From NCBI GenBank assembly GCA_045647355.1, contig JAZRMF010000005.1, positions 101,763 through 165,762 of the forward strand: a stretch of DNA of 64,000 nucleotides, given 5' to 3'. The position numbers were made by a program, and so were the translations under genes. Shown one piece after another: positions 36,642 to 52,133 of the stretch. The notes under the pieces were generated by a model. That model worked only from the letters and a program-made list of their open reading frames with translations. It searched no databases and was not told the DNA's origin. Source of the stretch: Candidatus Enterousia sp. (GTDB lineage Bacteria > Pseudomonadota > Alphaproteobacteria > Rs-D84). Each line of letters begins with the position of its first letter. Position 1 is the first letter of the stretch.

Positions 36642-36646
36642 TTTTA

Positions 36647-37462
36647 TTACCTTTTGTTCTGCAATTGTTTGGCTGTCGTCAATTGAATATTAAAGTGTGA
36701 AAAATCAAATAATTTGACGACCTGGTCGATTTCTTGATTTATTCCACGACAAAGGTCTTGTACAACCGTCACAGAATAGCCCTTGCATAAATATCCCCAA
36801 ATCGCATATTTTACGCAGAAATCACTCGCAACGCCCATAATATAAACATCTGTATTTTTCGGTTCAAATCCGGTCAGGGCTTTTTGTATTGCACGCGGAT
36901 CCGCCCACACATCATACACATTTTTTAATATTCTGTCATATTTATCCAATCGTATTGCTAATTTCCATCCATTTGTTCCGTACAAACAATGCGGCGGAAA
37001 ATCTCTTGATTCTGATGTGTTGTTATATGTTGCGCGATAATGCGTATCAAATGTTGCTATAGTTTTATCGAATTTAACTTTACGCAAAAAATCATTTGCT
37101 GGCTCAATCAAAGATTCTGCACCGGCAACAGGCAGTTTACCATTTGCCATCACAAAATCTTTTTGCATGTCAACAATGTGTAAAAGTGTTTTGTTCGTTT
37201 TTTTATTGTCTTCTACTTTTGGACTTTTGTATTTTTTCACTAACTTTATCACATCACTAACGGTCTGAATTTTGTCTTGTTCGCTATCAGGAATAATAAC
37301 TTCTAAATCTCTTTCGACATCCATTAATAATTCGACTTTATCCAAGGAATCTGCACCCAAATCGTCTTCAAAAAATGCATTTGGGGTTATTTCACTTGCA
37401 TCAACATCTAATCGTTCCAAAATAATTGGACGAATTTGTTCAAGTATTTGCTTGTCTGACAT
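36647..37462 (-). CDS. acyl-carrier-protein domain fused to isochorismatase-family cysteine hydrolase (nicotinamidase-like)
   Basis: ACP motif DLGADSLDKVELLMDVE; C-terminal IVDMQKDF...GVASDFCV...V.DLCRGI cysteine-hydrolase motifs. Confidence 0.6.
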   Translation of the reverse strand: MSDKQILEQIRPIILERLDVDASEITPNAFFEDDLGADSLDKVELLMDVERDLEVIIPDSEQDKIQTVSDVIKLVKKYKSPKVEDNKKTNKTLLHIVDMQKDFVMANGKLPVAGAESLIEPANDFLRKVKFDKTIATFDTHYRATYNNTSESRDFPPHCLYGTNGWKLAIRLDKYDRILKNVYDVWADPRAIQKALTGFEPKNTDVYIMGVASDFCVKYAIWGYLCKGYSVTVVQDLCRGINQEIDQVVKLFDFSHFNIQLTTAKQLQNKR

Positions 37463-37696
37463 TTTTTATCCTTTTAGTTTTATCTGGTTTTTGTTATTTA
37501 CAAAATGATAATAACATAATAATATTATCATTGTCAAGATGTTATTATCAAAATATTTAAAACACAATAAAACCATATACGGATAAAACTCTAGAGACTT
37601 TTTCAGTTTTTAATATTTTACGTTTTACACGTGGTCTACACGAAGCCATTTTTTGCCTGAAAGGGCGGATTCTGGCGGCGTGCGAATTTTCTTTAC

Positions 37697-37793
37697 AAAA
37701 TGTTTATAAAGTCCTTGACTTATAGGGAGTTTAGGTATAATACAAGCGCTGTTATTCGGGCATAGTTCAGTCGGTAGAACAACGGACTGTTAA
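37697..37793 (+). repeat. direct repeat A: tRNA-Asn promoter + 5' 38 nt of tRNA-Asn (through anticodon loop), degenerate tRNA remnant
   Basis: identical to 50029-50066 then diverges after CTGTTAA; 3' acceptor-like GCCCGAGCA follows after 4 nt. Confidence 0.8.
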
Positions 37794-37920
37794 CGGCGCC
37801 CGAGCACCCTCCCTAACAGACGATAATTGTGAAAGAATGCGCTAATAACCGCTGCTTATTAAGAAAAGAAATTTGACCGTTTACGCTAAAAGTCTATCAA
37901 TATATGGTTTAACTCCAGAT

Positions 37921-38060
37921 AACGTTTTACACGTGGTTTACACAGAATGTGTTTACACACAGTTTACACCACCTTTTCAACCCCGCAAAATGCCGTAACG
38001 CCGTTCCGTTGTCCTTGCTACACACGGTTTACACACCGGCTACACACAAAAGTGATTTAC
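37921..38060. repeat. iteron-like TTTACAC/CTACAC direct repeats
   Basis: cgttttacacgtggtNtacac also at 37621-37641 and 39598-39618; YTACAC motifs recur near 56015-56150. Confidence 0.5.
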
Positions 38061-38110
38061 ATGGTCAAAAAAGATGAGGAACACGAATTCTTGGTCCCCT
38101 GTTCTAAGCA

Positions 38111-38557
38111 TTATAAATGTACGATTTCAATATCTGGGATTTGGCTTGCGATGTATTCAGCTGCTAGCCGTCTGTGACACATATCGGCTGTCTTTTCTGT
38201 GCAAAGTAAACATATCCTGTCTAGTTTATGAGTATCAAAATTTCGCAGCGGGTTGCGCGCGTTTAACAATTCGCGATATTTCTGCTCGAACTCTGCCCAA
38301 GCAAGTTTTTTATCTTTATAATCGGCCAAAAATTCTCCGCTTGGTGCAAATTCTGGATGGTATTCATAACGGCTACCAAGCACCAACGCCAAATTATCGC
38401 CATTATAATATGGCACATAAGTGCTCGTCCGCCAAAGCCGAATGTCCCACACACAACTTATGCGTGCCGCTGACAGCACTTCCAGAAAAACTTCTGGTTT
38501 TTTGCCACTAAAACCAATCGTAAATATCTTTGTCATATCAGTATAAAAATAGCCCAT
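38111..38557 (-). CDS. DUF488 family protein
   Basis: IFTIGFSGKKPEVFLEVLSAARISCVWDIR matches DUF488 N-terminal pattern. Confidence 0.5.
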   Translation of the reverse strand: MGYFYTDMTKIFTIGFSGKKPEVFLEVLSAARISCVWDIRLWRTSTYVPYYNGDNLALVLGSRYEYHPEFAPSGEFLADYKDKKLAWAEFEQKYRELLNARNPLRNFDTHKLDRICLLCTEKTADMCHRRLAAEYIASQIPDIEIVHL

Positions 38558-38620
38558 TCAATATCAAATAGCAATGACAAACTATTTATGATACAATTTT
38601 ATGAAAGGATTCTATTAAAC

Positions 38621-39568
38621 ATGAATATTTCAACAGATAAATTGTTACACAATATCGTGATTGATTCGCGACAACAATATGCATTGTACCTTAAAACTAG
38701 GCAAGGTGTGATCGAACAATATGGCGGCAAAAGGACCAGTGATTACACGAATTTTCGTATGGCATCTGTAACAAAACAATTTATATCATTTTGTATTTTA
38801 TTTCTTATACAATCTCGACATATCGGCATAAACACACGATTATCACAAATCTTTGACGACATACCAGAATACATGAAAAGCATCACTATTCGTCATTTAC
38901 TAACTCATACATCTGGCCTTATTGATTACGAAGACAGACCCAAAATCAGCCGCAAACAAATAACAGATAAAAAAGTATTTGAGTATCTAAAAACTTTAAA
39001 ACATGCATATTTTAAACCAGGCACAAAATACAGATACAGTAATAGCGGCTATATTATATTGGGACAAATTATAGAAAAAATATCCAAAAAGAAATTGCCG
39101 GTTTTTGTTCACAACACTATATTAGCTCCCGCGCGTATGCACAACTCTCTCATATACACCCAAGACGTTTCTGTGATAAAAAATCGTGCATATGGACATA
39201 AAATAGACAAAAACAATCGGATAATTATTTGTGATCAAGGTCCTAATACAGCAACCCAGGGCGATGGCGGTCTTTATTCTTCCATACATGATTTGAAAAA
39301 ATACCTATATTTTATTCAGCACAACCCATTGGCATCAAAAATGTTTGTACCGAATATATTACCAAACAGTAAAAACACAGGATACGGATTTGGTTTACGA
39401 ATAATAAAGCACAAGAATTACAAAATTATATACCATTGTGGTGGAACAATAGGAACAAACACTATTGTTGGTTTTATACCACGTTTAGACATTGAATTCG
39501 CATTTATGACATCACTCGACGGCATAGATACTGAAATATTTTTAAGAAATCTTTTGCATTGTTTCTAG
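38621..39568 (+). CDS. serine hydrolase, beta-lactamase/PBP transpeptidase-fold family
   Basis: S-x-x-K motif ASVTKQF, YSN-like YSNSGY; start at MNISTDK with RBS aaagga. Confidence 0.65.
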   Translation: MNISTDKLLHNIVIDSRQQYALYLKTRQGVIEQYGGKRTSDYTNFRMASVTKQFISFCILFLIQSRHIGINTRLSQIFDDIPEYMKSITIRHLLTHTSGLIDYEDRPKISRKQITDKKVFEYLKTLKHAYFKPGTKYRYSNSGYIILGQIIEKISKKKLPVFVHNTILAPARMHNSLIYTQDVSVIKNRAYGHKIDKNNRIIICDQGPNTATQGDGGLYSSIHDLKKYLYFIQHNPLASKMFVPNILPNSKNTGYGFGLRIIKHKNYKIIYHCGGTIGTNTIVGFIPRLDIEFAFMTSLDGIDTEIFLRNLLHCF

Positions 39569-39672
39569 ACAAACAAATATTTTATCTTAATTTTTGCGTT
39601 TTACACGTGGTTTACACGAAGCCATTTTTTGCCCCAAAATGCGGATTTCTGGGACAGACAATTTTTATTTGC

Positions 39673-39769
39673 AAAATGTTCAGAAAGTCCTTGACTTGTG
39701 CGGATTTTAGAGTTATTATATCGCCTGTTATTCGGGCATAGTTCAGTCGGTAGAACAACGGACTGTTAA
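39673..39769 (+). repeat. direct repeat B: tRNA-Asn promoter + 5' 38 nt of tRNA-Asn
   Basis: as repeat A; followed by 275-bp segment shared with repeat C flank. Confidence 0.8.
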
Positions 39770-40045
39770 AATACCGGAAGTTCTTAGCAAAACCGTTTGA
39801 ACCCACCACAAAAAACCGCAGATTTCCGCGGATTTTTTTAACTCAAAATTTTTCAATTCTGATATCATATATGATATCTATGACATAGCATATTAGGGCG
39901 ATAAGTGGCAATAACTAGCACCTAATTTTGATAAAAACACATATTGACATACGGAGTCCATCGGTCATACGAAAAACATACCCAAAAACACCCCCGATTT
40001 TTCATATCCGAAATCAATAATGATATCATACGTGAAATTGTATTT
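39770..40045 (+). repeat. about 275-bp repeat following tRNA fragment (also 43887-44162), contains terminator and 19-bp palindrome
   Basis: aaaaaaccgcagatttccgcggattttttt terminator; tgatatcatatatgatatc palindrome. Confidence 0.8.
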
Positions 40046-40057
40046 GATTTTACACCA

Positions 40058-40086
40058 TTGAAATTTGATAAAAAGTATGTTAGAAT
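40058..40086 (+). promoter_or_regulatory. sigma70-like promoter TTGAAA-17-TAGAAT for leader copy 2
   Basis: conserved with copy 3 promoter. Confidence 0.55.
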
Positions 40087-40107
40087 TCCTAATGAATCCA
40101 AGAGATT

Positions 40108-40313
40108 GGGTTCGGGGCATGCTAAGCCCACTTCATTCGGTGCGAAAGCATCGTAATCTGATGTTATCGGTGTCTTTTGCACCGTTATCATCCCTGACTT
40201 ATGGTCGGGGGTTCGTTGGTGATACAACAGGGGTAACCCGAAAGCCACGAAATCAATAATGAAGTGATTTAGCAACTCCCCGACCGCCAATTTCCTTGGC
40301 GGTTCAATTTTTA
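40108..40313 (+). ncRNA. conserved structured 5' leader, copy 2
   Basis: see copy 1; terminator-like hairpin accgccaa-tttcc-ttggcggt + T-run immediately before RBS aggaga. Confidence 0.6.
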
Positions 40314-40327
40314 TAGGAGAGAATACC

Positions 40328-41272
40328 ATGAAAAGATGTTTAATTTTCGTATCAATATTAGCACTGGCAGCATGTACAACAGATAGTGGTGGTGGCAGCA
40401 GTGGCGGTTCGTATAATCATGGCATATCTGGAGGGTATAGCGGTACCACTACGAACAATAATACAAATGGTGGCAATAGCGGAGGTAATACTGGTGGTAA
40501 TACCAATAATCAACAAAACAATCAAGTGGTACATTATACAAACTTTAAACAATACTTTGATAATGTGTTACAACAAAATACAAATGGAGTGTATACAGAT
40601 TTTGTTGAAACTACACAAAGTTGGCCTTCCCAAGGAGGGTATAAACATTATGGATACAATGTAAACTCATCTACGGGTACACAACATAGCATATCGAAAT
40701 ATGTTGTTGAAGAAAAAGAAATGCAGCTCGCAAATTATGGTGTTCAAAATTATACTTATAAGCAGGATTTTGATAACGAATTCCATGATGCTAGCGAATA
40801 TTCTGCAACGGCATATGCACATAATCGTGAGGGTGTCGGGGCAAATTTATATACGCCACAAGAAAACACAGTTTTTAGTGGAGGAACGCTTGCTTATTTA
40901 GACACAAGCGGTCAACAAGCAGATATGTTCTTAAAAGGGAATGCCACATACACGTACAATTCAACCAACCCAGAATTGTTAATCGCATATGATAATTATT
41001 ATACATTCAATATAGTGAAAGGCGATGGTAACAGTGAAACCACGACTGTATCTGGTACAAATAATACAGGAAATGCTTATTACGATGTTACACCAGGAAC
41101 ATACACAGATAATTATGGGTATGATGCCACTTTCACACCAAATCACTTAAAAAAGGGGAATATAGAGGAAGCTGTTGGCACGTATCAACTAAATTTTGGT
41201 ACTGGGGATATTGGTGGTAACACAACAAACAATTTCTTTATACATGGTGCATTTGGTGGCGCAAAGCAGTAA
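40328..41272 (+). CDS. surface lipoprotein candidate (Gly/Ser/Asn-rich linker after lipobox Cys)
   Basis: lipobox LAAC then TTDSGGGSSGG; followed by TPR+barrel gene. Confidence 0.6.
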   Translation: MKRCLIFVSILALAACTTDSGGGSSGGSYNHGISGGYSGTTTNNNTNGGNSGGNTGGNTNNQQNNQVVHYTNFKQYFDNVLQQNTNGVYTDFVETTQSWPSQGGYKHYGYNVNSSTGTQHSISKYVVEEKEMQLANYGVQNYTYKQDFDNEFHDASEYSATAYAHNREGVGANLYTPQENTVFSGGTLAYLDTSGQQADMFLKGNATYTYNSTNPELLIAYDNYYTFNIVKGDGNSETTTVSGTNNTGNAYYDVTPGTYTDNYGYDATFTPNHLKKGNIEEAVGTYQLNFGTGDIGGNTTNNFFIHGAFGGAKQ

Positions 41273-41275
41273 ACA

Positions 41276-42640
41276 ATGCATAATAACATGCGTATTTTAG
41301 TTGGAATATGCACTGCGTTATTTATGTGGGTGTCTGCTGGATTCGCCGAACAAGTACAAACATTAGAACTAGATGATAAACAAGCGCTGGCATTGGCTAA
41401 CGATCTAGTAAATAAAGGCGATTTAAAGTCTGCTACAAATATTTTAGATGCTGTTATAAAAAGCGAGGATGAAAATGCACGTACAGTCGCATTATTTGAA
41501 ATGGGACGAGTGGCATTGGCTAGACACGATTATGCAACAGCAGAGCAAAATTTTCTGACCATATTGAATTGGTACCCAGAGGCAACATTTGTTCGTATGG
41601 AACTAGCCAAAACTTATTTTGCTGCTGGACAATACAGTAGCGCAGATTTTAATTTCCGTTTGGTACTGGCAGATAAGAGTTTATCTGACAATGAACAAAA
41701 ACTTGTACGGAACTATTTGAATTTAATTCGTAAACAAAGAAATTGGGATGTGTTTGCCAGTTTTTCTGTAGTTCCAGATTCAAACCTTAACTATGCCACA
41801 GGCAGAAGAGAAGAATGTATAAACACGATAGCAGGTACACTTTGTCGTGACTTAGAAGACAAATCGTCTGGGATTGGGTTGCAGTACAGTTTAGGTGGCG
41901 ATTATTACCTTAAATTGACCGACCATTTCGGTATAAAAACCAGTGCAGCTTTATATGCGTTGGATTTTCCAACATCAAAATTTGATGATTACATGTTTTA
42001 TGTGGCCGCAGGACCTCGTTACATAATAGATGGAATTGGCGAATTCAGTATCCAGCCATTTGCACAATTGCGCTGGTACGGCGACGAATATTATGACACT
42101 ATGCCAGGCATACGGGCTGATGCAGATTTTGATTTAACAAAGCGGTTGCATTTGTCTCTAGGGGGATCGTATAGCAGGGATATGTATCGTGACGATTCCT
42201 TGAATAGAATTTTGGGTGGCAACGAATATTCGATATACGTTCAGCCACGTTATTATATCAACAATAAAAGTTTCGTATTTGTAGGTACTGCTTATACGAA
42301 TGTCACAGCAAAACAAAAATCATACGGTAACCATGGGTTAAATTATTCCCTGGGATATTTCGCAGAATTGCCATTGACTTTGACTCTGCTTGCTAGGTTG
42401 GATCTGATACAAACAAGGTATAAAAAATCACAGTATTTTATAATGGAAGACAGTAACCTAGAATACTTCACAAGACGTGATACAACATACAGAACTTGTA
42501 TACGGCTATCAAGTCGTTATTTAGAATACAAGAGGCTTTATCCATCGATAAGCTATACTTACACCAGGCGCAACTCAAATGCTCCTATATACGAATTTGA
42601 CAAGCACAGATTTCAAATAGAGATGAACTACCGTTTTTAA
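41276..42640 (+). CDS. TPR + C-terminal beta-barrel outer-membrane protein, Slam/DUF560-like
   Basis: signal peptide, N-terminal TPR-like helices, C-terminal alternating beta pattern ending ...EMNYRF; about 70% identical paralog at 47313-48650. Confidence 0.5.
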   Translation: MHNNMRILVGICTALFMWVSAGFAEQVQTLELDDKQALALANDLVNKGDLKSATNILDAVIKSEDENARTVALFEMGRVALARHDYATAEQNFLTILNWYPEATFVRMELAKTYFAAGQYSSADFNFRLVLADKSLSDNEQKLVRNYLNLIRKQRNWDVFASFSVVPDSNLNYATGRREECINTIAGTLCRDLEDKSSGIGLQYSLGGDYYLKLTDHFGIKTSAALYALDFPTSKFDDYMFYVAAGPRYIIDGIGEFSIQPFAQLRWYGDEYYDTMPGIRADADFDLTKRLHLSLGGSYSRDMYRDDSLNRILGGNEYSIYVQPRYYINNKSFVFVGTAYTNVTAKQKSYGNHGLNYSLGYFAELPLTLTLLARLDLIQTRYKKSQYFIMEDSNLEYFTRRDTTYRTCIRLSSRYLEYKRLYPSISYTYTRRNSNAPIYEFDKHRFQIEMNYRF

Positions 42641-42655
42641 CCGAAAGGGCTGTAA

Positions 42656-43474
42656 ATGAAAATTGTGAAACAAATAAATGAAGAACTTATACAAGACGTA
42701 TTATGTGTTCCGCCATATCCAATAATAAATGGTGAATTTATCCAAAATTACTTAAAGCAACCAAAAAATCGAAGAAAATTCTTTATAACGAAAGAAATCA
42801 TTTCGCCTATTAGACGTGCTTCGTATGCGACATATCATTACAGAGAATTAGACATTTTTAAAGAAGTACGCATCGTTATAGAATATGCGATTATTGCTTT
42901 TTATGATAATAACCCAATATGCTCTTATTTAAGTTTATTGGCTGTAATAGAAACACTATTGTGGAATTGGCACAAAGAAATCTCAAATACAAATAGACAA
43001 CGGCTGAAAGTAGCAACTCACGATATATCAATATATATCAAATCCAAAATTTCAGACAATTCCGAATATAATCAAAGAATATTGTTACTTACGGATTACT
43101 TGGAAGAAGCAATTAACATAGGATGGAGTCAAGGCAATAATGCACCAAAGAAAGAATTTAATAGGAACCTTTCATTACATTATCTGCAAAATGCTAATAA
43201 ATATGACATAAACTTACTAAATAACTGTAGAGCTTTGCTTATCATTGATGTTATTGCTGACTTATATTGCAGAACCCACTCAGACAAGTATAAGAAAATG
43301 CAATCTTTATATGACCTAGAATATAACCACTCGCTATTTGAGTTATATGCCAAATATTATCAAAAACTAAGTGTTCGAATGCTTGAAGGTGCACAAGGTA
43401 ATTTTATCCAAAACGTACTGTTGAAAGATAATATCACAAAAGCAGAAACAAAACATATCATGAGTCTTATGTAG
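42656..43474 (+). CDS. hypothetical protein
   Basis: ORF only. Confidence 0.4.
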   Translation: MKIVKQINEELIQDVLCVPPYPIINGEFIQNYLKQPKNRRKFFITKEIISPIRRASYATYHYRELDIFKEVRIVIEYAIIAFYDNNPICSYLSLLAVIETLLWNWHKEISNTNRQRLKVATHDISIYIKSKISDNSEYNQRILLLTDYLEEAINIGWSQGNNAPKKEFNRNLSLHYLQNANKYDINLLNNCRALLIIDVIADLYCRTHSDKYKKMQSLYDLEYNHSLFELYAKYYQKLSVRMLEGAQGNFIQNVLLKDNITKAETKHIMSLM

Positions 43475-43559
43475 TCCCACAGAATACAACACGTACAAAT
43501 AATCATACGAAACGACATACAGTCAGTTCGTCCGTTGTTTTTTTATAGCATGAAATCAT

Positions 43560-43886
43560 CATTGATTTCGACTGTGATTTTACTAAAAACGACACACAGA
43601 ATATTCTGTGTGTCCCTGTTAGCACTTTACACATGGTCACGCACAAAAAATACACAACAAACAACAAGTTATATTTTACAGGAATCAGGTGCTAATTTTC
43701 ACTTTTTGCTTTCGTGTACGTATATGTGAAAAAATCACACAAAATCACACGCAAGCCGCAGAAAACTGACCCCAAAATTTGTAGTATAAAATATTCAGAA
43801 AGTCCTTGACTTGTGCGGATTTTAGGTATAATATAGGGTCTGTTATTCGGGCATAGTTCAGTCGGTAGAACAACGGACTGTTAAAA
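43560..43886 (+). repeat. direct repeat C: about 330-bp tRNA-Asn upstream region + promoter + 5' 38 nt of tRNA
   Basis: about 90% identical to 49740-50066. Confidence 0.8.
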
Positions 43887-44157
43887 TACCGGAAGTTCTT
43901 AGCAAAACCGTTTGGACCCATCGCAAAAAACCGCAGATTTCCGCGGATTTTTTTAACTCAAAATTTTTCAATTCTGATATCATATATGATATCTATGACG
44001 TAGCATATTAGGGCGATAACTGGCAATAACTAGCACCAAATTTTGATAAAAACACATATTGACATACGGAGTCCATCGGTCATACGAAAAACATACCCAA
44101 AAACACCCCCGATTTTTCATGTCCGAAATCAATGATGATATCATACATGAAATCTGG

Positions 44158-44520
44158 TTAATTATGCTTGATTTCATGAGTGGCAATATACTTGTTCAAT
44201 TCACTAACAACATCTTTTGCGGATTCAATAGATGCCACACGCAGAAAGTCCGATAATTTTTGCTGAATATGTGCTTCTTGTAATAACAAGATACATTGCT
44301 TTAACACGACCAAAAAATTATTTGGTAACACGCACCCACCAACCTGTTTAAACTTGTTAATATAGTCGTTTAAAATCCATTTCGCCAATACGGCGGCACA
44401 ATTTAACTGATGCTGCTTGTCGTCATTATTGTCAACGGGCAAAAATCGCCTTAACCAACCATATAAAGCGATATCTTGCATATTTACATCTTCATACATA
44501 ATAAATCCTTTTGGTTTCAT
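44158..44520 (-). CDS. hypothetical protein
   Basis: ORF only. Confidence 0.35.
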   Translation of the reverse strand: MKPKGFIMYEDVNMQDIALYGWLRRFLPVDNNDDKQHQLNCAAVLAKWILNDYINKFKQVGGCVLPNNFLVVLKQCILLLQEAHIQQKLSDFLRVASIESAKDVVSELNKYIATHEIKHN

Positions 44521-44703
44521 TATATGGATTATAAACTAAAACACAAATTAAAAACATGCCCAAAATACTGCAATAAAAAATGCTAGGTTTCTGGGTGTTT
44601 GCTGCTATTCTATGAACTTTTTATGAATAAATTAAAATGAATAAATAACTGGACTTTCGCCGAAAGATATTGATGAATACGACAACCTTAAAAAGGATTG
44701 TCG

Positions 44704-44910
44704 ATGAAGTATAAACATTTTCGGGAAATTGAGCCCAATAACAAGACAGATTTTATTATGCTCTACTTCGCAGCATGCCGATCGTTACACGAATTAGAGA
44801 ACGCTATACGCAGAACAAACAATGGTAATTTAACCTGCAAACAGACATGGCTGTTTCGCCGCTTGTACCGCAAACTATTCCAAATGGCAGCATCGTGGAA
44901 AACACAATAG
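44704..44910 (+). CDS. small conserved basic protein (paralog at 50439-50657)
   Basis: two copies about 80% identical, each with RBS; located at cassette edges. Confidence 0.5.
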   Translation: MKYKHFREIEPNNKTDFIMLYFAACRSLHELENAIRRTNNGNLTCKQTWLFRRLYRKLFQMAASWKTQ

Positions 44911-44997
44911 AGTTAAAAATGCCTTTGCCCCCTTGATTTTTTATAAAATATATCTATATATTCCTACAACAAATATTAAGAATTGAAGGTATACGGA

Positions 44998-46089
44998 ATG
45001 ACAGCAGAAATTGTTATAATGAATAAAAGGGGTGTGGCAGCGTCTGCAGACAGTGCGGCGACGGTTGGTAAAAAAACTTTTAATGGTGCTAATAAATTAT
45101 TCCAACTTATAAAAAATAAACCTGTTGGTGTTTTAATTTTTAATAATTCTGAAATAAATGGAATACCTGTCGAGTTGGTAATCAAAGAATATGGAACAAC
45201 CAGACAGAATAAAAAGCTAGATTCGTTAAAAGATTATGTGGATGACTTTAAAGGTTTTTTAAAAAATTTTGTCAAACAACACATGGGTACATGGGATCCA
45301 CTACTTGGGGCATTTGATGATTTCTTAATAGTATCAAATGGATTAGCTGATTTAAATTTACTAAAAGAAACATTGTCATCTAATCGTAATGTTTTGAATA
45401 TGCGATGCACCAAAGATTTAAAAAAGAGAATACAAAAATATTTAGATTTAAGAAAAGTATATTTGTCACCAACATTAGATTTTTCAAATTTAAATATTGA
45501 TGAAATTATTAACATGTTTTTACTTTTTGTAAATAGGTGTGATTTTTCCCCTGCAATGACAGGATTCGCCATATTTGGTTATGGAGACAAAGACATATAC
45601 CCTAAAACGTATGTATTTCACTCTGTTGGTTTTGTAAATGATAAAATTTTTAAATTTTTCTCCGAAGAAGCTCATGAAACAGACCAGGATATAATCCAAC
45701 TAGCACAGAGAGATATGAGTGATATGTTTATATTCGGGTTGCCATACCACTTAAAAAAAAGCATAACAACAATTTATAATGATGTTATTGCAAAATTATT
45801 TATATCAATCGGTGGGAACACACCAGAAGTAAAAAACATTATAGAAAATGCTCTTGCTAATTGTGCTAAAGAGGTAGATAAAAATATAACAGGTAGCAGA
45901 TTGTATAATTTACAACAATCTTTGCCTCATCTACCCCTAGAAGATTTGTCAAATTTATCTGCTACCCTGATAAGATTGGAATGTTTGAAAAACAGGGCTT
46001 CTCTGGATATGGAAAGTGTTGGTGGAGAAGTAAAAACAGCCATCATATCAAAACATGAAGGATTTCGTTGGAAAAACGATAAAAAATAG
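44998..46089 (+). CDS. hypothetical protein
   Basis: ORF only. Confidence 0.4.
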   Translation: MTAEIVIMNKRGVAASADSAATVGKKTFNGANKLFQLIKNKPVGVLIFNNSEINGIPVELVIKEYGTTRQNKKLDSLKDYVDDFKGFLKNFVKQHMGTWDPLLGAFDDFLIVSNGLADLNLLKETLSSNRNVLNMRCTKDLKKRIQKYLDLRKVYLSPTLDFSNLNIDEIINMFLLFVNRCDFSPAMTGFAIFGYGDKDIYPKTYVFHSVGFVNDKIFKFFSEEAHETDQDIIQLAQRDMSDMFIFGLPYHLKKSITTIYNDVIAKLFISIGGNTPEVKNIIENALANCAKEVDKNITGSRLYNLQQSLPHLPLEDLSNLSATLIRLECLKNRASLDMESVGGEVKTAIISKHEGFRWKNDKK

Positions 46090-46327
46090 GTTATAATATA
46101 AAAAACAGGAGATTTTATGCAAAATTGTATTTCTTGCTCTTTCGCAAAGGTGAAAGTTGCACAGGATCTTAGATCTATTGCTAGTGGTATAGCATCAAAG
46201 GCGATAGAGGAGTTAAAGGCTACAAAACGTTCTACTAATAATAGAGATAAGAAAAAAATTTAATGTAAAAAAAACAACAAAGTTTTAAAGGTCGGTATTT
46301 CAATACCGACCTTTTTCAATAAGAAAA

Positions 46328-46356
46328 TTGAAATTTTATAAAAAGTATGTTAAAAT
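46328..46356 (+). promoter_or_regulatory. sigma70-like promoter TTGAAA-17-TAAAAT for leader copy 3
   Basis: conserved with copy 2. Confidence 0.55.
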
Positions 46357-46370
46357 TCCTCATGAATCCA

Positions 46371-46582
46371 AGAGATTGGGTTCGGGGTCTTTACAAACCC
46401 GCTTTATCCGGTGCGAAAGCATCGTAATCTGATGTTATCGGTGTCTTTTGCACCGTTATCATCCCTGACTTATGGTCGGGGTGCCGTTAGCGATAAAACA
46501 GGGGCAACCCGAAAGCGCGGGGTCAATGATAAAGCGACTGTAAACACTCCCGACCGCTCTTTCTTGGGCGGTTTTAATTTAT
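46371..46582 (+). ncRNA. conserved structured 5' leader, copy 3
   Basis: see copy 1. Confidence 0.6.
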
Positions 46583-46601
46583 TCAACAAAGGGGGCACCC
46601 C

Positions 46602-47309
46602 ATGAAACCATTTGTCGTTTTATTATCCATCTTGTCTTTAACTGCTTGCGGTGGTGGTAGTGGTGGTAGTTCCCCCTCTAATCCTGGTCCAGTTAACCCA
46701 GGCAACCCGAACGTTCCGGGTATAGATGATGAATTAACCGCAGCGGAACAATTGTTTGGTCAAGGTAATGGCACAGGTGCTACACCAACAGCATTGTTAG
46801 CAAGGACCGATAATTTAGGGTTTGATTATTTATCTTTTGGGGCTTGGGGTAATATTTATAATTTGAAGGAATCCGATACAACAAAATTACTTAAAATACT
46901 TGTTCCTGGCGAACCAACATACAATGCGTTTATTAGCGGTAACCATCTTGAATTTACGACCCAACAATTAGAAACAATGCAAAATTGGACGCATACAAAA
47001 GATAGTCGTGTAGCAGAAGCAACATATACGGGGCCAGCCATTATGTATTATATGCCATTTAATCCATCTGGTGCTGTGACAGAATCAGACCATGGAACAA
47101 TGCAACTCAGTTTTGGGCAAGATATAGCAAATTCTGTTTTGAATTTTGTTATGCATAATCCGTCAAACAACATATCTCTCAATTCTGCCGATGATGTTTA
47201 TAGCACAAATTTCTCTGAAGATATGAATAATGTGGTAGTTGTGTATGGTATGTGGGAAAATAATGCTCACAACCTTAGGGTTTATCATGGCTACGGGTCA
47301 AAACAATAA
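46602..47309 (+). CDS. surface lipoprotein candidate
   Basis: lipobox LTAC then GGGSGGSSPSNPG linker. Confidence 0.6.
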   Translation: MKPFVVLLSILSLTACGGGSGGSSPSNPGPVNPGNPNVPGIDDELTAAEQLFGQGNGTGATPTALLARTDNLGFDYLSFGAWGNIYNLKESDTTKLLKILVPGEPTYNAFISGNHLEFTTQQLETMQNWTHTKDSRVAEATYTGPAIMYYMPFNPSGAVTESDHGTMQLSFGQDIANSVLNFVMHNPSNNISLNSADDVYSTNFSEDMNNVVVVYGMWENNAHNLRVYHGYGSKQ

Positions 47310-47312
47310 CTC

Positions 47313-48650
47313 ATGAAAAAAACTTTTTGTGTTTTGTTATTTTTGATTCCCACACTTGTAGTTGCACAAACAACTGATGTCACATATAACGATTCCTTGG
47401 AGTTTGCAAAAAAGCAAATTGTTGGTGGAAATTATGCACAAGCAGAAAAAACTTTGCGAAATTTAAATGGCACCAAAAACACCCAAGAAGAAATAGAAAA
47501 ATGGTTTCTGCTTGGTCAAGTTTATATGGCACAAGGTGACTTTAATACTGCAATAAAGATTTACAGAAAAATCTTAGATAAACAACCCGACTTGTCCAGA
47601 GTCCGTTTAGAATTAGCAAGGGCATTGTTTTTTAATAAACAGTATCAAGAAGCAGAAAATAATTTTTTGTTTGTTCGAGCCGACCACAATACCCCAAATG
47701 AAGTTGTGCAAAAAATTAACTTATTTTTGACCGCTATCAGACAACAAAGAAACTGGTATGCTAATTTTTCGTTTGGTATTGTTCCTGATTCAAACCTTAA
47801 TTATGCCACTGGACGACGTGAAGAATGTATAAATACAATGTTTGGTATTTTGTGTCGTGAATTGGATGACAAATCATCTGGTGTTGGCCTTCAGTATGGA
47901 CTTGGTGGGGATTATTATATAAAAATGACAGATAATTTCGGCATCAAAACCAGTGCATCGTTATATGCCCTTGATTTTTCAAATTCCACATTTGATGATT
48001 ATATGCTGTATATGGCAGCAGGTCCTAGATATGTCCTGGGCGGTATTGGCGAAATCAGTGTTCAACCGTTCACTCAATTACGTTGGTACGGTGGAGAGTA
48101 TTATAATACTGTCCCCGGTGTGCGTGCAGACATAGATTTGGATTTATCAAAACGTATTCGATTATCATTTGGTGGTTCATATAGTAAAGATATGTACCAC
48201 GACGATGATTTAGACGATATTTTACGTGGGGACGAATACACAACCTATATTCAGCCTAGATATTACATAAACAACAAAAGTTTTACATTTGTCGGTTTGT
48301 CTTATACAACCAACACAGCAAAATTAAAATCATATGGCAGTAATAGTATGTATTATTCTATTGGTTATTTTGGTGAATTGCCTTGGACCCTATCATTGTA
48401 TGCCAGGTTAGATTTAACACAAACAAAATACAAAGATTCACAATTCTTTATAATGGATGATTACACAGTAAATAAATTTACACGACGTGACATCGGTTAT
48501 CGTGCATATTTACGTCTATCCAGTCGTTATTTGGAATACAAACGATTGTATCCTGCAATCAGTTACACATACACTAAACGTGATTCAAATGCTCCTGCGT
48601 ATGATTTTGATAAGCATAGATTTCAAATCGAAATGAATTATAGATTTTAG
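47313..48650 (+). CDS. TPR + beta-barrel outer-membrane protein, Slam/DUF560-like (paralog)
   Basis: see 41276-42640; ends ...EMNYRF. Confidence 0.5.
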   Translation: MKKTFCVLLFLIPTLVVAQTTDVTYNDSLEFAKKQIVGGNYAQAEKTLRNLNGTKNTQEEIEKWFLLGQVYMAQGDFNTAIKIYRKILDKQPDLSRVRLELARALFFNKQYQEAENNFLFVRADHNTPNEVVQKINLFLTAIRQQRNWYANFSFGIVPDSNLNYATGRREECINTMFGILCRELDDKSSGVGLQYGLGGDYYIKMTDNFGIKTSASLYALDFSNSTFDDYMLYMAAGPRYVLGGIGEISVQPFTQLRWYGGEYYNTVPGVRADIDLDLSKRIRLSFGGSYSKDMYHDDDLDDILRGDEYTTYIQPRYYINNKSFTFVGLSYTTNTAKLKSYGSNSMYYSIGYFGELPWTLSLYARLDLTQTKYKDSQFFIMDDYTVNKFTRRDIGYRAYLRLSSRYLEYKRLYPAISYTYTKRDSNAPAYDFDKHRFQIEMNYRF

Positions 48651-48772
48651 TAATAAAAACACTTCATTTTACCGTTTACACCGTGGTATTTTGGTATTAT
48701 AATACTATATACAGTGGGACGATGTGTAAATTTTCACTCGTCTCTTTTTATTAAAAAATATTGGTAAAGGAC

Positions 48773-49537
48773 TTACTTTTTATCAGTTTTTTGTTCCATT
48801 ATACGCTTAACAAATTCATCTCCAACAACCTTGCAATTATTGATTTCAAACTTCTTTATCAACTTATCATCAAGTTCCATGACATTATTATACAAAACAT
48901 CAATAACATTATTTAAATATTCAGGTTCTATATCTTTTCTGTTCCCAAGAAGATTTTCGTTTAACTGTAATTTGTTGATATATCTTCTGTTAATAACACA
49001 ATCATTATGAACAGATATATTTCTGATTTCAATTGCTTCCCTTACGATGCTTTTATTGCTTTCGTCAATAATTTTTACTCCTAATCTTTTATCAAAAAAA
49101 TCAAACAAATCGTCAAAAGACGAATACGATAATTCGTTTACTTTTTTTTCTGTTAATTCTGTAACAAAATCATCCATTGTTTTATATTTCAAAACCTCAT
49201 CTAGTTTTACCACTTCTGATGATTTTAAAATTTGTGGGCAACATAAAAAAACATCTTTAAGGATAGACGACAAATAATTTTCATAACATTCTACCAAACG
49301 ACACAGCCACAGTTCCAATATTAGTCCGAAATATTTTTTCAATTTATCTGTTGCCGCATGTTTTAATTCTTCTTTTGCTGGTTCTTGTTCGTGTATCTTA
49401 GCCAATGCTTTGACGGCACAAATTCTCATTTCATCAACTTGTTGTGTGGTACAAATTATGTAATAAAAAAATTCAGCCAGATGATTTGTGTTCTCAAAAA
49501 AATGTGCACAGGCATTCGTAACTTTTATTTTTACCAT
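48773..49537 (-). CDS. hypothetical protein
   Basis: ORF only. Confidence 0.4.
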   Translation of the reverse strand: MVKIKVTNACAHFFENTNHLAEFFYYIICTTQQVDEMRICAVKALAKIHEQEPAKEELKHAATDKLKKYFGLILELWLCRLVECYENYLSSILKDVFLCCPQILKSSEVVKLDEVLKYKTMDDFVTELTEKKVNELSYSSFDDLFDFFDKRLGVKIIDESNKSIVREAIEIRNISVHNDCVINRRYINKLQLNENLLGNRKDIEPEYLNNVIDVLYNNVMELDDKLIKKFEINNCKVVGDEFVKRIMEQKTDKK

Positions 49538-49985
49538 ATTTGACCTTTCTTTATTATACGTATAGAAGTATGATATAGTGCCTTGTGTAAATCAACAAAT
49601 TTTATTAAATTACCCATTTGCGACCCAAACCATACATTCCAAATAGGAGGTGCGTTTGGTGGACCAAAACAATAGTTAAATATTACCCACAAAAAAGCAA
49701 CGGACGATTTGTCCGCTGTTTTTTGCTTAACCTAAAATCAACATTGATTTCAATTGTGATTCTGCTAAAAACGACATATAGAATATTCTGTGTGTCGCTG
49801 TTAGCACTTTACATATGGTCACGCACAAAAAACACACAACAAACAACAAGTTATATTCCAAAGGAATCAGGTGCTAATTTTCACTTTTTGCTTTCGTGTA
49901 CGTATATGTGAAAAAAACACACAAAATCATACGAAAGCCGCAGAAAACTGACCCCAAAATTTATAGCATAAAATATTCAGAAAGT

Positions 49986-50015
49986 CCTTGACTTGTGCGG
50001 ATTTTAGGTATAATA
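49986..50015 (+). promoter_or_regulatory. tRNA-Asn promoter (TTGACT ... TATAAT)
   Basis: -35/-10 about 7 nt upstream of mature tRNA 5' end; duplicated in repeats A-C. Confidence 0.6.
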
Positions 50016-50028
50016 TAGGGTTCGTTAT

Positions 50029-50104
50029 TCGGGCATAGTTCAGTCGGTAGAACAACGGACTGTTAATCCGTATGTCACTGGTTCGAGTCCAGTTGCCCGA
50101 GCCA
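50029..50104 (+). tRNA. tRNA-Asn (anticodon GTT)
   Basis: acceptor TCGGGCA/TGCCCGA + G + CCA, anticodon loop CTGTTAA, T-loop GGTTCGAGTCC; 76 nt. Confidence 0.9.
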
Positions 50105-50109
50105 CAAAT

Positions 50110-50142
50110 TAGCCGTAATTCCTTGGAATTACGGCATTTTCT
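50110..50142 (+). terminator. rho-independent terminator after tRNA-Asn
   Basis: agccgtaattccttggaattacggc + TTTTCTTTT. Confidence 0.8.
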
Positions 50143-50438
50143 TTTATTTTTGTCTATGGCAATTTGTTCTGGTATAAAATGCAAAAAAGTGTTAAAAATC
50201 GCAAATAATTATACCAGAGTTATACACGGCTTGTAGAAAAAACGCCTATAAAAACGATTGCAAAACCAGTATTTACAAGCCTCTCAGAAGATTATATGCC
50301 CCTGAGAACAACGGAACGAAGTCCGTATATCTGCTTGTATACAAAATGTATACATTTTTAATTATCAGATTTCCAAGAAACGACTGGACTTTTGTTAAAA
50401 GATAAGGACAAATACAACAACTTTTAAAGGGGTTGTAC

Positions 50439-50657
50439 ATGAAATACAAACATTTTCAAGAAATTGAGCCGAGCAATAAAACTGATTTTATTATGCTCTA
50501 CTTCGCGGCGTGTAGATCATTACGCGAATTGGAATCGAATGTACGATACAAACAAAACGGAAATCTAACCTGCAAACAGGCATGGCTATTCCGCCGTTTG
50601 TATCACAAATTATTTCAAATGGCTGCATTATGGAAAAACGACGATGATCGCCCATAA
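50439..50657 (+). CDS. small conserved basic protein (paralog of 44704-44910)
   Basis: RBS aaagggg; about 80% identity to other copy. Confidence 0.5.
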   Translation: MKYKHFQEIEPSNKTDFIMLYFAACRSLRELESNVRYKQNGNLTCKQAWLFRRLYHKLFQMAALWKNDDDRP

Positions 50658-50678: not shown

Positions 50679-52133
50679 CTATTTTAGAGATGTGAGATCT
50701 AATTTTTTCAATAGCTCCCCTTCATCTTGTAACATAAATTCTATCAATGGGCTAAGATTTGCAACAAATGTGTCACAATCCGAAGGCGTTGCGCTAACCT
50801 TGTCGTTATGAATAATTTGCTGAATGTTATCAATATTAAAAGAAGAAAAAGCTCTCTTCATACTCAACTCTGAAATTAGTTTTGTAAACAATTCGGACAA
50901 TACGGCAAAATCCGTAAAAGGCTTTTTGGTCCCTTTCTTTGTTCTAAAAGCATCATTAAAATATTCATAACTAGACAATTTCTTATCTTGGTATTTTGTG
51001 TTGTCTAAAACCCATTTCAAAGTACATTCAAACACTATTCTTATCATAGCCATCTTCGCATTAGGAACCTGCTGACTATTGAGTTTCATGAACAATTCAT
51101 CTATTTTGTATTCAAGAGATTTAGAACGATTTTTTCTTGTCAAAACCGGTTTTTTTTGAACAGAACCTCGTAAACTTTTGTTTTTTGGGCTATCTACACC
51201 TTTTTCAGGTGCCGCGACAACATCTGGCAAAACACCATCGTACTTTTTTTCATTCCCCATACTCAAATTTGATTCATTTTTAGAATTGAAACTCAACCCC
51301 AATTCCGGCTGAGAACTACCTGTTTCTGTTATTTCTATTTTACGCAGAAAATCTTGCTGTTGTTCCGGCTTATCTACATCATAATATGATGCGTCTGGAT
51401 TTTTTTGTAAATATTCAACTACATTATTGATATATTTTTTAAACAACTTATTATCAGTTATTATCAATTTATATTTTTCGTTTTTACCCCCGAAATCGTA
51501 TCCACAAATTTTTCTGGACCGAAACAATCTCTCTAAGAAAGCTAATTTTCCACCTTTCTTTCCAGAGCTTCTAACCAATTCCTTAAAATTTTCTCCGCCA
51601 TGTTTTACAGCCTCATAGTAAAAATTTGCGATTTTCATAAAATCTCCGACATTAGAATCAATCGCCTGAATATCATCACTCGATGCTCCCGCAATAAACA
51701 ATCGGTGTATTTCTAAAGCTTTTGCTATACGACTCCATGCCCTAAACGATGGAGTCGCATGTTTTTCCCTTATTCTTTTTTCCAACAAACGTTCATCGTC
51801 ATAAATTATAGCAGGTAACTCTTGTATGTCAAACTTATCAACATTTAATCCAAAAACATCTGGATTTGATAACGCAACTACGGCCGCAGCTCGCCTATTT
51901 CCTTCTTTTACAAGATACGAACCATCATGTTGTTTTACCACCCACAAAGCTTCGTCAGGATAATATTCGTGTTTATCTAGTATATTATCAACTATTTCAT
52001 GTGCATTTTCTTCATTAAGTAAATATAAAATAATTTCTTTTTGTGTGGTACCAGAATATAGGTCCGCAAATCTAGGATTGTGCGAATCCAATACCAAATT
52101 CTCTCTTTTTACATACTCTATTTTATGCTTCAT
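50679..52133 (-). CDS. ParB/Srx-fold N-terminal domain protein (defence-island associated)
   Basis: ParB-N-like LVLDSHNPRF...VKEGNRRAAAV; long uncharacterised C-terminus. Confidence 0.5.
   Translation of the reverse strand: MKHKIEYVKRENLVLDSHNPRFADLYSGTTQKEIILYLLNEENAHEIVDNILDKHEYYPDEALWVVKQHDGSYLVKEGNRRAAAVVALSNPDVFGLNVDKFDIQELPAIIYDDERLLEKRIREKHATPSFRAWSRIAKALEIHRLFIAGASSDDIQAIDSNVGDFMKIANFYYEAVKHGGENFKELVRSSGKKGGKLAFLERLFRSRKICGYDFGGKNEKYKLIITDNKLFKKYINNVVEYLQKNPDASYYDVDKPEQQQDFLRKIEITETGSSQPELGLSFNSKNESNLSMGNEKKYDGVLPDVVAAPEKGVDSPKNKSLRGSVQKKPVLTRKNRSKSLEYKIDELFMKLNSQQVPNAKMAMIRIVFECTLKWVLDNTKYQDKKLSSYEYFNDAFRTKKGTKKPFTDFAVLSELFTKLISELSMKRAFSSFNIDNIQQIIHNDKVSATPSDCDTFVANLSPLIEFMLQDEGELLKKLDLTSLK

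Follow-up and report, generated by a model that had tools for sequence, protein, structure and literature searches.

How does a tRNA gene come to be preceded by several partial copies of itself, with accessory genes lying between them, and what moves such an arrangement? This question is raised by a tRNA-Asn locus of the gut alphaproteobacterium Candidatus Enterousia sp., which we analysed within a stretch of 64,000 nucleotides (the window, 64 kb).

Structure of the tRNA-Asn locus

The single intact tRNA-Asn(GTT) gene that ARAGORN predicts in the 64-kb window lies at 50029-50104 on the plus strand and matches the Rfam tRNA family with 74 bits. Upstream of it on the same strand lie three 5' fragments (nucleotides 1-38; copies A, B and C), which are identical to the intact gene (copy D) from the promoter through tRNA nucleotide 38 (...GGACTGTTAA), their last bases being the anticodon loop CTGTTAA. 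Similarity to the intact gene ends abruptly after 37793 in copy A, 39769 in copy B and 43884 in copy C (corrected from 43886), equivalent to 50066 in the intact gene. An earlier sequence-only reading of this DNA had described repeated units of promoter and 5' tRNA part that delimit three accessory cassettes, and this is what we find, with three copies ending at A38 and one intact gene. The start-to-start distances from A through B and C to D are 1976, 4115 and 6182 bp, and the copies bound cassettes 1, 2 and 3 of 1.98, 4.1 and 6.2 kb. About 100 bp are common to all four copies; copies A and B align over 37610-37793 and 39587-39769 (83% identity), copies C and D over 43527-43884 and 49708-50066 (92%). 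The repeat reported to follow the tRNA fragments is genuine as well (39770-40038 versus 43885-44153, 95% identity). A 3'-half fragment of tRNA-Asn was not found anywhere in the 64-kb window. Considered as a tDNA island in the sense of Islander, the locus has an intact tRNA and a cognate end fragment in the same orientation, here a 5' fragment lying upstream. A tyrosine integrase inside the island was found in no cassette and nowhere in the 64-kb window, and is present in relatives (L092/L133, L138-141, L146-148). The features of the locus are as follows.

37625-37641, plus: two YTACAC repeats (37625, 37636) spaced by 11 bp, -169/-158 relative to the end of the loop; resembles arm-type sites, upstream arm of copy A
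37715-37743, plus: promoter A (-35 TTGACT, 17-nt spacer, -10 TAATAC)
37756-37793, plus: truncated tRNA-Asn copy A, nucleotides 1-38, ending in CTGTTAA
37794-38110, plus: left end of cassette 1, segment X (CGGCGCCCGAGCA...) then seven YTACAC repeats (37927, 37938, 37953, 37964, 38018, 38029, 38040)
38111-38557, minus: cassette 1 cargo, DUF488 protein
38588-39568, plus: cassette 1 cargo, beta-lactamase-fold protein
39601-39769, plus: right end of cassette 1, YTACAC pair (39601, 39612), promoter B and copy B
39691-39719, plus: promoter B
39732-39769, plus: truncated tRNA copy B
39770-40045, plus: left end of cassette 2, segment X (AATACCGGAAG...), hairpin and GATATC repeats (39861, 39873, 40022)
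39816-39831: bidirectional terminator-like hairpin plus T run, cassette 2 left end
40057-40315, plus: promoter and structured leader of about 220 nt, with a terminator just 5' of the ribosome-binding site of the lipoprotein gene
40328-43474, plus: cassette 2 cargo overall
40328-41272, plus: cassette 2 lipoprotein
41276-42640, plus: cassette 2 Slam
42656-43474, plus: cassette 2 unknown protein of 272 aa
43527-43884, plus: right end of cassette 2, conserved 330-bp upstream module, promoter C and copy C
43806-43834, plus: promoter C
43847-43884, plus: truncated tRNA copy C
43885-44162, plus: left end of cassette 3, sharing 95% identity with the cassette 2 left end, with GATATC repeats (43976, 43988, 44137)
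43931-43946: terminator-like hairpin, cassette 3 left end
44158-49537, mixed strands: cassette 3 cargo overall
Minus: cassette 3 open reading frame of 120 aa
44632-44910: cassette 3 module of small open reading frames
Also in cassette 3: unknown protein of 368 aa
46327-46585: cassette 3 leader
46602-47309: cassette 3 lipoprotein
47313-48650: cassette 3 Slam
Minus: cassette 3 open reading frame of 254 aa
49708-50028, plus: right end of cassette 3, with promoter D and an upstream module that shares 92% identity with the copy C module
49988-50016, plus: promoter D
50029-50104, plus: intact tRNA-Asn(GTT), ARAGORN and Rfam
50112-50135, plus: intrinsic terminator of the tRNA gene

The cargo is as first listed from sequence, namely a DUF488 protein, a beta-lactamase-fold protein, two pairs of lipoprotein and Slam, and hypothetical proteins. 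Among known RNA families, Rfam detected only tRNA, plus weak matches under the gathering score.

Recurrence in related genomes

Within one lineage of uncultured gut Alphaproteobacteria, cassette arrays in tRNA-Asn are common. Among 185,579 species genomes scanned, 89 truncated copies turned up in 72 loci, all of them in Candidatus Enterousia-like gut Alphaproteobacteria; the search pattern admitted no T after TTAA and would equally have matched tRNA-Asn of the E. coli type. Rumen metagenomes contained a further 53 truncated copies in 49 loci, and the A38 junction recurs in 142 truncated copies on more than 100 independent contigs. Not one of these 142 copies has a mismatch in the 5' half. Neutral pseudogene decay after tandem duplication was rejected as an origin, with the 5' half perfect in all 142 copies and positions 39 to about 66 unrecognisable. 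The lack of decayed copies requires fast turnover, gene conversion or selection.

Comparison of related genomes bears out the proposed hotspot as polymorphic. In L002, whose flank is 99.6% identical to that of the window, an intact tRNA-Asn lies directly behind promoter A, and the same is seen in L001 with a flank of 97.5% identity. Both strains depart from the window sequence in the 3' half of the tRNA, with compensatory T-stem changes, and in the downstream DNA; at least one further event separates them from the window. Divergent intact tRNA-Asn genes occur 260 nt past the truncated copies in L013, L056 and L062. A scan of IMG/VR for phages with an attP of the window type returned one contig, which was rejected as a phage and represents the chromosomal fabI-ligA region with one cassette.

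Phage integrases and the likely crossover site

Recombinases were searched with a tyrosine-recombinase-box regular expression and with phmmer, using XerD, lambda Int, gamma-delta resolvase and a phage Int as queries on the open reading frames in all six frames of the 72 loci and the whole window, complemented by a survey of 135 cassette protein clusters with Pfam. The cassettes contained no detectable integrase or transposase, in agreement with the sequence-only reading, and neither did the rest of the 64-kb window; no integrase was found in 120 of the 121 array loci. The genome loci yielded only two unrelated small serine recombinases (L073, L058) and the metagenome loci two more (L100, L105). 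Phage gene remnants were not seen in the cassettes, nor did PHROGs reveal phage structural genes after one left-end family.

The statement that recombinases are lacking holds for the cassettes and needs refinement beyond them, as recombinases exist in trans on lambda-like temperate phages of the lineage. In these phages, xis and a P4-type tyrosine integrase gene lie directly beside the same promoter and 5' half as in the window. The integrases combine Arm-DNA-bind_3 and Phage_integrase domains, Xis is of the HTH_17 type, and the phage backbone includes GpA terminase and Phage_portal_2. Integrase P0001 and its Xis are located 300-500 nt from, and divergent to, a promoter and 5' half with a YTACAC pair (L092/L133). 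P0002 and P0003, 77-79% identical to P0001, show the same arrangement, on contigs whose ends fall inside the 5' half of the tRNA or precisely at A38. Promoters A and B of the window can be aligned with the phage-linked promoter region over -175 to -1, and both ends of the window cassettes are homologous to the att region of the integrase-bearing phages, with int and xis absent. Among the phage loci recovered, none was a complete prophage with both junctions, and the left junction of an autonomous element was not seen. Two integrase relatives have no tRNA-Asn nearby, with P0048 on the same contig as L010, and the tRNA-Asn site is not used by every family member.

Sister phages with the same backbone carry or adjoin the other side of the tRNA. 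Their integrases (P0009, P0019 and P0071) are 52-67% identical to P0001, and in these phages a phage arm is followed by CTGTTAA and a perfect tRNA 3' half; one sister-phage end is joined to four different partners at the CTGTTAA core. Identity extends up to A38 in the 5'-side carriers and begins at C32 or A31 in the 3'-side sister phages, and the overlap is CTGTTAA. Because this 7-nt anticodon loop is the sole segment common to both geometries, it is the likely crossover site, as had been proposed from the window. A conserved inverted core site was not found in the first ~10 nt past A38, which is unusual for tyrosine recombinases. The arrangement is the mirror image of ordinary phage-style integration. 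A crossover that conserves the 5' part had been called atypical, which is correct, yet the type is known, with a 5' fragment in 159 of 3919 tDNA islands in Islander (PMC4383910). Host XerCD at a dif-like site, an integron GTTRRRY core and an IS200/IS605-type insertion 3' of TTAA were rejected, each showing weak similarity by eye, and are unnecessary given the phage integrase linkage.

Repeats and left ends of the cassettes

The motif YTACAC is enriched 50-80-fold at -169/-158 and from +133 to +246, always in one orientation, and GATATC is the mark of other left-end families. Both kinds of repeat are spaced 11 bp apart on both sides of the core and are putative integrase arm sites. The array after a given copy predicts the pair before the next copy (10 of 11 versus 3 of 20, Fisher p = 6e-5, a test that ignores the shared ancestry of loci); for the pair preceding that copy itself it has no predictive value (odds ratio 0.22). 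Repeat type is a property of the cassette and not of the tRNA copy. Repeats of these kinds also adjoin xis-int in phages of the lineage, including a YTACAC pair between xis and promoter in phage loci L133, L138 and L146. Integrase P0001 belongs to the YTACAC type and P0071 to the GATATC type. An independent precedent is given by unrelated phage contigs, in which a tRNA-Thr is followed by TTTACAC repeats and then a tyrosine integrase.

The DNA past A38 falls into about 17 families, which are common to different species and combined with different cargo. The left end of cassette 1, for instance, recurs at 90-97% identity in L010, L047, L057, L073, L076 and L093 as well as in L095, L107, L108, L112, L127 and L128, in each case with different cargo. 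The first stretch, segment X, occupies the place of the phage-borne 3' half and is about equal in length. It often retains an NYCYGAA remnant of the acceptor strand, after which a tRNA-type terminator follows. In most families, segment X looks like the decayed tRNA 3' half that an element would once have borne. The consistent position of the acceptor-like motif makes descent from a tRNA 3' half a better fit than a structured RNA. Pairing of segment X with the acceptor strand was rejected as a sign of structured RNA, because in no single family did it exceed shuffled controls. The suggestion that copy A is an internally deleted tRNA can be upheld in part: in most families, the 40-50 nt past the loop resemble a decayed 3' half, probably an element-borne one. 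The GCCCGAGCA downstream of copy A (37800-37808) is a remnant and not a conserved feature, because the homologous left ends of other genomes have GACCGAGCA or CACAGAGAG at this position.

Proposed growth of the array and alternative explanations

We consider it probable that the locus is a tandem array of three integrase-less integrative cassettes, grown by site-specific recombination in the tRNA-Asn loop. The left end of an element would comprise a decayed tRNA 3'-half copy, a terminator and arm-type repeats, followed by cargo, and the right end arm-type repeats, the tRNA promoter and tRNA nucleotides 1-38. Insertion would join the promoter and 5' half of the element to the resident 3' half, so the tRNA gene would stay intact, and the previous promoter and 5' half would stay upstream as a truncated copy. 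Three rounds of insertion would produce the series A, cassette 1, B, cassette 2, C, cassette 3 and D-tRNA, and the present tRNA would have its 5' half (to 50066) from cassette 3 and a resident 3' half. The enzymes would be the P4-type tyrosine integrases and HTH_17 Xis supplied by the lambda-like temperate phages of the lineage. As the cassettes have att ends without recombination genes, they either depend on phage integrases in trans or are fixed leftovers. We can only infer their mobilisation in trans, because the integrase is absent from the window and from all but one of the array loci, and the cassettes could be immobile. The locus might go further and constitute an integron-like, phage-driven capture platform, a possible though doubtful extension. 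Int and Xis with matching arms would then excise, shuffle, invert and insert cassettes, and truncated copies would be live att sites and perhaps sources of chimeric tRNA-half RNAs. The cargo in question includes defence genes, Slam-lipoprotein modules and metabolic genes.

A tentative alternative is a fossil array, in which serial integrase-bearing elements or prophages have since lost integrase and backbone, and the cassettes no longer move. The missing recombinases in all cassettes and the window, as well as a cargo mosaic among loci, are in line with such a history, and the tycheposon model describes a comparable accumulation beside a tRNA (bioRxiv 10.1101/2020.12.28.424599). However, both ends of each unit are kept with matching arm-repeat types, and cassette ends are 90-97% identical across species, whereas the cargo of one shared cassette reaches only ~80%. 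Cargo-less units of 390-424 bp (L146, L127), perfect 5' halves with conserved promoters in the truncated copies and the lack of phage gene remnants in the cassettes also argue against mere fossils.

RecA-dependent crossover in repeats of 40-180 bp, by which circles or linear pieces bearing the promoter and 5' half would be inserted and deleted, with no dedicated recombinase and the A38 boundary dating from one ancient event, appears unlikely. In its favour, the perfect repeat is sufficiently long for RecA (38 nt plus leader, reaching 358 bp for C and D), the mosaic left ends have their breakpoints at the terminator, and no integrase is linked. Homologous recombination alone would nevertheless be hard to reconcile with phage integrases directly adjoining the promoter and 5' half, with the boundary of sister phages on the opposite side of the same 7 nt, with phased arm-like repeats that move with the element and with an identical boundary in ~17 families.

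We also assign a low probability to the truncated copies having been kept for a function, either as chimeric small RNAs (5' half, segment X and terminator) or as portable strong promoters for the cassettes, which would make the array an expression platform more than an integration scar. The conservation of -35/-10 elements in 78 unique copies, the perfect 5' half, the terminator 40-70 nt beyond the loop and the discrete conserved families of segment X would suit such roles. Yet the terminator speaks against read-through into cargo, several first cargo genes sit on the opposite strand, and complementarity between segment X and the acceptor strand does not, in any one family, exceed that of shuffled controls. 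A recent derivation from a functional gene half, together with selection on att sites, would also account for the conservation. Finally, repeats wrongly duplicated or joined during assembly are a negligible explanation, for although short-read contigs often break inside the repeat (L003, L138-L141, L147), 19 independent loci, assembled by different programs in different projects, contain arrays of two to three copies, and the copies are not duplicated reads because the flanks of the four differ (83-92% identity).

Integrative cassettes grown at the tRNA loop would represent a lineage-wide route by which these little-studied, uncultured gut Alphaproteobacteria assemble accessory and defence islands. 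Island finders that need an integrase or a 3' fragment would miss such arrays. Candidate tools for site-specific integration in the lineage are the integrases, the arm motifs and the minimal units of ~400 bp. The strong promoters kept in truncated copies raise the question of whether tRNA 5'-half chimeric RNAs are made and act.

Relation to known systems

In outline, tRNA-dependent lysogeny in mycobacteriophages splits the tRNA and supplies a replacement (PMC10865867). Some relatives likewise split the tRNA and provide a replacement (L013, L056, L062), whereas the window gene would be repaired at the junction itself with no separate replacement tRNA. CIMEs, integrase-less cis-mobilisable elements, are bounded by functional att sites, lack recombination genes and occur in tandem at ICE att sites, e.g. 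ICESt1/CIME in Streptococcus thermophilus; they are probably moved by the integrase of a related element. The window cassettes likewise have both att sites, lack recombination genes and stand in tandem, and by analogy could be moved in the same way. In contrast to CIMEs, the putative helpers are temperate phages rather than ICEs, and insertion is directed to a tRNA loop. Integrons combine IntI with attI, and their cassettes end in attC, an imperfect inverted repeat with a GTTRRRY core; CALINs are such arrays with no integrase nearby. Integrons and CALINs share with the locus an array format in which small, diverse cassettes mostly lack mobility genes, a recombination site at each boundary and, if our reading of the window cassettes is right, a recombinase acting in trans. 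Identity as an integron or CALIN was rejected: no integrase is adjacent, the boundaries are tRNA 5' halves, and GTTAA is only superficially like GTTRRRY, identity at the cassette boundary ending after GTTAA and not after G. Unlike integrons, the locus lacks IntI, attI and attC hairpins, what recurs as the site is a tRNA 5' half under its own promoter, insertion in our model would occur at the intact-tRNA end, and each unit contains phage-type arm repeats.

Tycheposons of Prochlorococcus insert repeatedly at one tRNA, newcomers displacing older elements (Hackl et al., bioRxiv 10.1101/2020.12.28.424599). They resemble the present arrays in partial tRNAs between neighbours, accessory and defence cargo and islands that mostly lack an integrase, but differ in host lineage, integrase clade and phage backbone, the integrases here being P4-type on lambda-like phages. 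Units here span 0.4-6 kb, have both att ends intact and carry the tRNA promoter and 5' half. A hallmark of tycheposons is their own tyrosine-recombinase clade together with a replication module (primase/helicase).

Williams reportedly distinguished sublocation classes of integration within tRNA genes in 2002. As in tyrosine (P4/lambda-type) tDNA prophages and islands, the crossover is likely centred on the 7-nt anticodon loop, the element-borne tRNA part would restore the gene, and at the far end lies a displaced fragment in direct orientation. Putative arm-type repeats flank the core, and Int and Xis lie beside attP in autonomous relatives. Unlike in Islander entries, the units of the window have no integrase and would fail the Islander integrase filter. 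In contrast to usual tDNA islands, the element would supply the promoter and 5' half, and what is displaced is a 5' fragment whose promoter is live. The lineage thus offers a natural comparison, in which one integrase family and one 7-nt core would allow the target to be repaired in two mirror-image ways, by a 3' half or by a promoter and 5' half.

The tRNA-Asn array

The tandem tRNA-Asn copies form a real array, and the interpretation given by the sequence-only reading is correct. Three truncated copies (A, B and C) match the intact gene from the promoter to tRNA nucleotide 38 and then diverge sharply and completely, with the final common bases (...GGACTGTTAA) at 37793, 39769 and 43884. Together with copy D, the promoter and 5' half of the intact gene, they are spaced by 1976, 4115 and 6182 bp and delimit the three cassettes that had been claimed. 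Copies A and B have 184 bp in common at 83% identity, and copies C and D 358 bp at 92% identity. The DNA downstream of copies B and C is 95% identical over ~270 bp, in agreement with the repeats of about 275 bp reported earlier. No further tRNA-Asn 3' half was found elsewhere in the 64-kb window.

Features of the array
50029-50104: intact tRNA-Asn(GTT), sole intact copy in the window (Rfam tRNA, 74 bits)
Cassette 1 (A to B): DUF488 protein and beta-lactamase-fold protein
Cassette 2 (B to C): lipoprotein, Slam and an uncharacterised protein
Cassette 3 (C to D): second lipoprotein and Slam pair, four uncharacterised proteins

The 330-bp upstream module of copies C and D contains a near-perfect 24-bp palindrome (GACACACAGAATATTCTGTGTGTC; 43591-43614 and 49773-49796), also kept in five loci from our scans (L005, L026, L027, L034, L075).

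Distribution and strain polymorphism

The scan covered 185,579 species, each represented by one genome, and looked for tRNA-Asn from the D-arm to the anticodon loop with a next base other than T, a pattern that E. coli-type tRNA-Asn also satisfies. The 72 matching stretches belong without exception to uncultured Alphaproteobacteria of the gut, under the label Candidatus Enterousia or a similar one. They contain 89 truncated copies and 12 intact ones, with two to three truncated copies in 15 loci. Rumen metagenomes (JGI/ENA) add another 49 loci with 53 truncated copies. The 5' half is perfect in 142/142 truncated copies, also at positions left free by the pattern, and imperfect matches occur only in intact variant tRNA-Asn genes.

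The site is polymorphic between strains. In the relatives compared for an empty site, L002 and L001 (left flanks 99.6% and 97.5% identical to the window), promoter A leads straight into an intact tRNA-Asn, after which comes unrelated DNA. The window also departs from both strains in the tRNA 3' half and the DNA downstream, hence more than a simple insertion separates the strains. First cassettes differ between species with a common chromosomal flank (macAB-tolC, fabI, or pncA/pncB).

Flanking features in the window
33718-37462: left flank, NAD-related cluster (ACP-isochorismatase fusion, NrtR-type NUDIX regulator, NUDIX protein, divergent S-AdoMet-synthetase-like gene)
50679-55308, minus strand: low-GC (31-35%) block directly downstream of the intact tRNA (uncharacterised 484-aa protein, D12-class Dam methylase, uncharacterised 239-aa protein, Eco57I-type methylase)

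The downstream block resembles an islet for restriction-modification or defence and is unrelated to the corresponding DNA of L001. The S-AdoMet-synthetase-like gene also adjoins tRNA-Asn or a prophage junction in L074, L133, L143 and L146.

Anatomy of the repeated unit

Sequences following the last shared tRNA base (A38) fall into ~17 recurrent left-end families common to several species, and a given family can occur with differing cargo. The cargo, grouped into 135 protein clusters, has an accessory or defence character (methylases, type I restriction subunits, AAA_15 and AAA_21 ATPases, Schlafen, Macro, NUDIX). Most left ends carry a hairpin and T run 40-70 nt past the loop, the terminator distance of the intact tRNA gene, and the terminator sequence is sometimes identical. 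Many also keep NYCYGAA at +33 to +41, probably left over from the acceptor 3' strand.

Phased repeats resembling integrase arm-binding sites surround the core. Those of the YTACAC type lie at -169/-158 and +133, +144, +159, +170, +224, +235 and +246, in a single orientation throughout, at 23-33 per kb around the core vs 0.4 per kb elsewhere. Other left-end families carry GATATC at about +91, +102 and +252. Cassette 1 of the window has the YTACAC type at both ends, and cassettes 2 and 3 have GATATC left ends. The repeat type after one copy predicts the type before the next (10/11 vs 3/20, p = 6e-5, kinship of loci ignored) but not the type before the same copy, so the travelling unit consists of left end, cargo, arm, promoter and 5' half. 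Units can lack cargo altogether (L146:7261-7685; L127 with A38 at 2665 and 3058, tRNA-strand coordinates); there the next copy follows after only 393-424 bp, reducing the unit to left end, arm, promoter and 5' half.

Integrases and the crossover point

The rumen sample that yielded L002 also contains the metagenome locus L092, which encodes a P4-type tyrosine integrase (P0001; Arm-DNA-bind_3 and Phage_integrase) and an HTH_17 Xis. Both genes lie 300-500 nt upstream of a promoter and 5' half, divergently, with a YTACAC pair in between. The integrase family is large (2929 matches at E < 1e-20). Relatives 77-79% identical (P0002, P0003) show the same arrangement on lambda-like phages, whose genes include ParB-methylase, GpA terminase and portal. 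Several of these contigs end at A38 precisely or within the tRNA 5' half. Between -175 and -1, the promoter region linked to the phages can be aligned with promoters A and B of the window.

The mirror image is seen with sister integrases that share this phage backbone (P0019, 59%, and P0071, 52% identical to P0001): next to xis follow a phage arm, CTGTTAA and a perfect tRNA-Asn 3' half. One such phage was found joined to four different flanks. P0009 (67%) has one phage arm for which four different partners were seen at the ACTGTTAA junction, including a genuine 3' half standing alone. The 11-bp-spaced repeat beside xis is specific to the integrase subgroup, being YTACAC, TTATCAC or GATATC. Only the 7-nt loop is common to the 5'-half and 3'-half geometries, which locates the crossover there, as the earlier reading had proposed. 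Segment X, the DNA directly after A38, occupies the position that the 3' half has in classical relatives and is thus most simply a decayed 3' half formerly carried by the element.

In the 18-kb locus L143, a perfect tRNA-Asn 3' half stands alone with its terminator and is joined at ACTGTTAA to a phage arm beside xis-int (9050-9700). No intact tRNA-Asn is present in the locus, and this prophage seems to have split the gene. In phage contigs from IMG/VR that are unrelated to the lineage (L079-L083), TTTACAC repeats spaced 11 and 15 bp begin within 10 nt after tRNA-Thr(TGT), and a divergent tyrosine integrase comes next.

Origin of the array

The array is best explained, judging from sequence, by three successive integrase-mediated insertions into the anticodon loop. 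Each would restore the tRNA gene from its 5' side, with integrases supplied in trans and the repeats as putative arm sites. A fossil array, no longer mobile, is the main rival reading. No recombinase was found among the proteins of the three window cassettes, as previously noted. The truncated copies, with conserved -35 and -10 elements (n=78 unique copies), possibly have a function of their own, which is compatible with successive insertion. Homologous recombination alone is unlikely; the loop-only overlap of the two geometries is the signature of site-specific recombination. Assembly error is unlikely, and cassette arrays are a property of a lineage rather than peculiar to the window contig.

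RNA genes and small modules near the arrays

Both lipoprotein-Slam operons contain a conserved structured leader of ~220 nt (40087-40315 and 46357-46585) between the promoter (TTGAAA-17-TAGAAT) and the ribosome-binding site, ending in an intrinsic terminator. RNAalifold, applied with 13 homologues from other loci, predicted 59 pairs, 22 with compensatory changes. Rfam gave only a weak sRNA-Xcc1 match (38 bits vs a gathering score of 53). The leader is a candidate riboswitch-like regulator. A 270-bp module (44632-44910 and 50375-50638) contains a 68-aa ORF (MKYKHFREIEPNNK...) without a Pfam match; at least 13 loci have this module 300-500 bp past tRNA-Asn copies, both truncated and intact ones.

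A divergent intact tRNA-Asn has eight changes in the 5' half and nine in the 3' half, compensatory stem changes among them. In three loci this gene (L013:4536-4612, L056:4320-4396, L062:7685-7761, tRNA-strand coordinates) is located 260 nt downstream of truncated copies that belong to one left-end family; for L006 and L072 the distance is 440-1070 nt. Some elements seem to supply a replacement tRNA. Elsewhere, an opposite-strand intact tRNA-Asn faces a truncated copy in convergent orientation at a distance of 350-400 bp (L133:9006-9431; also L027, L044, L055, L067, L070), often with a compensatory anticodon-stem variant (CAATGGA/TCCAT). Such pairs could stem from integrase-mediated inversion between inverted cores.

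Comparison with known systems

Insertion by tyrosine integrases at the tRNA anticodon loop is classical. Islands displacing a 5' fragment are known yet rare (159/3919; PMC4383910). For tycheposons, islands accumulated beside a tRNA have been described, with partial tRNAs separating neighbours (bioRxiv 10.1101/2020.12.28.424599). New here are the systematic use of the promoter and 5' half as a repair module, an integrase family containing mirror-image relatives, and an abundance of small integrase-less units, the smallest ~400 bp, with apparently complete att ends.
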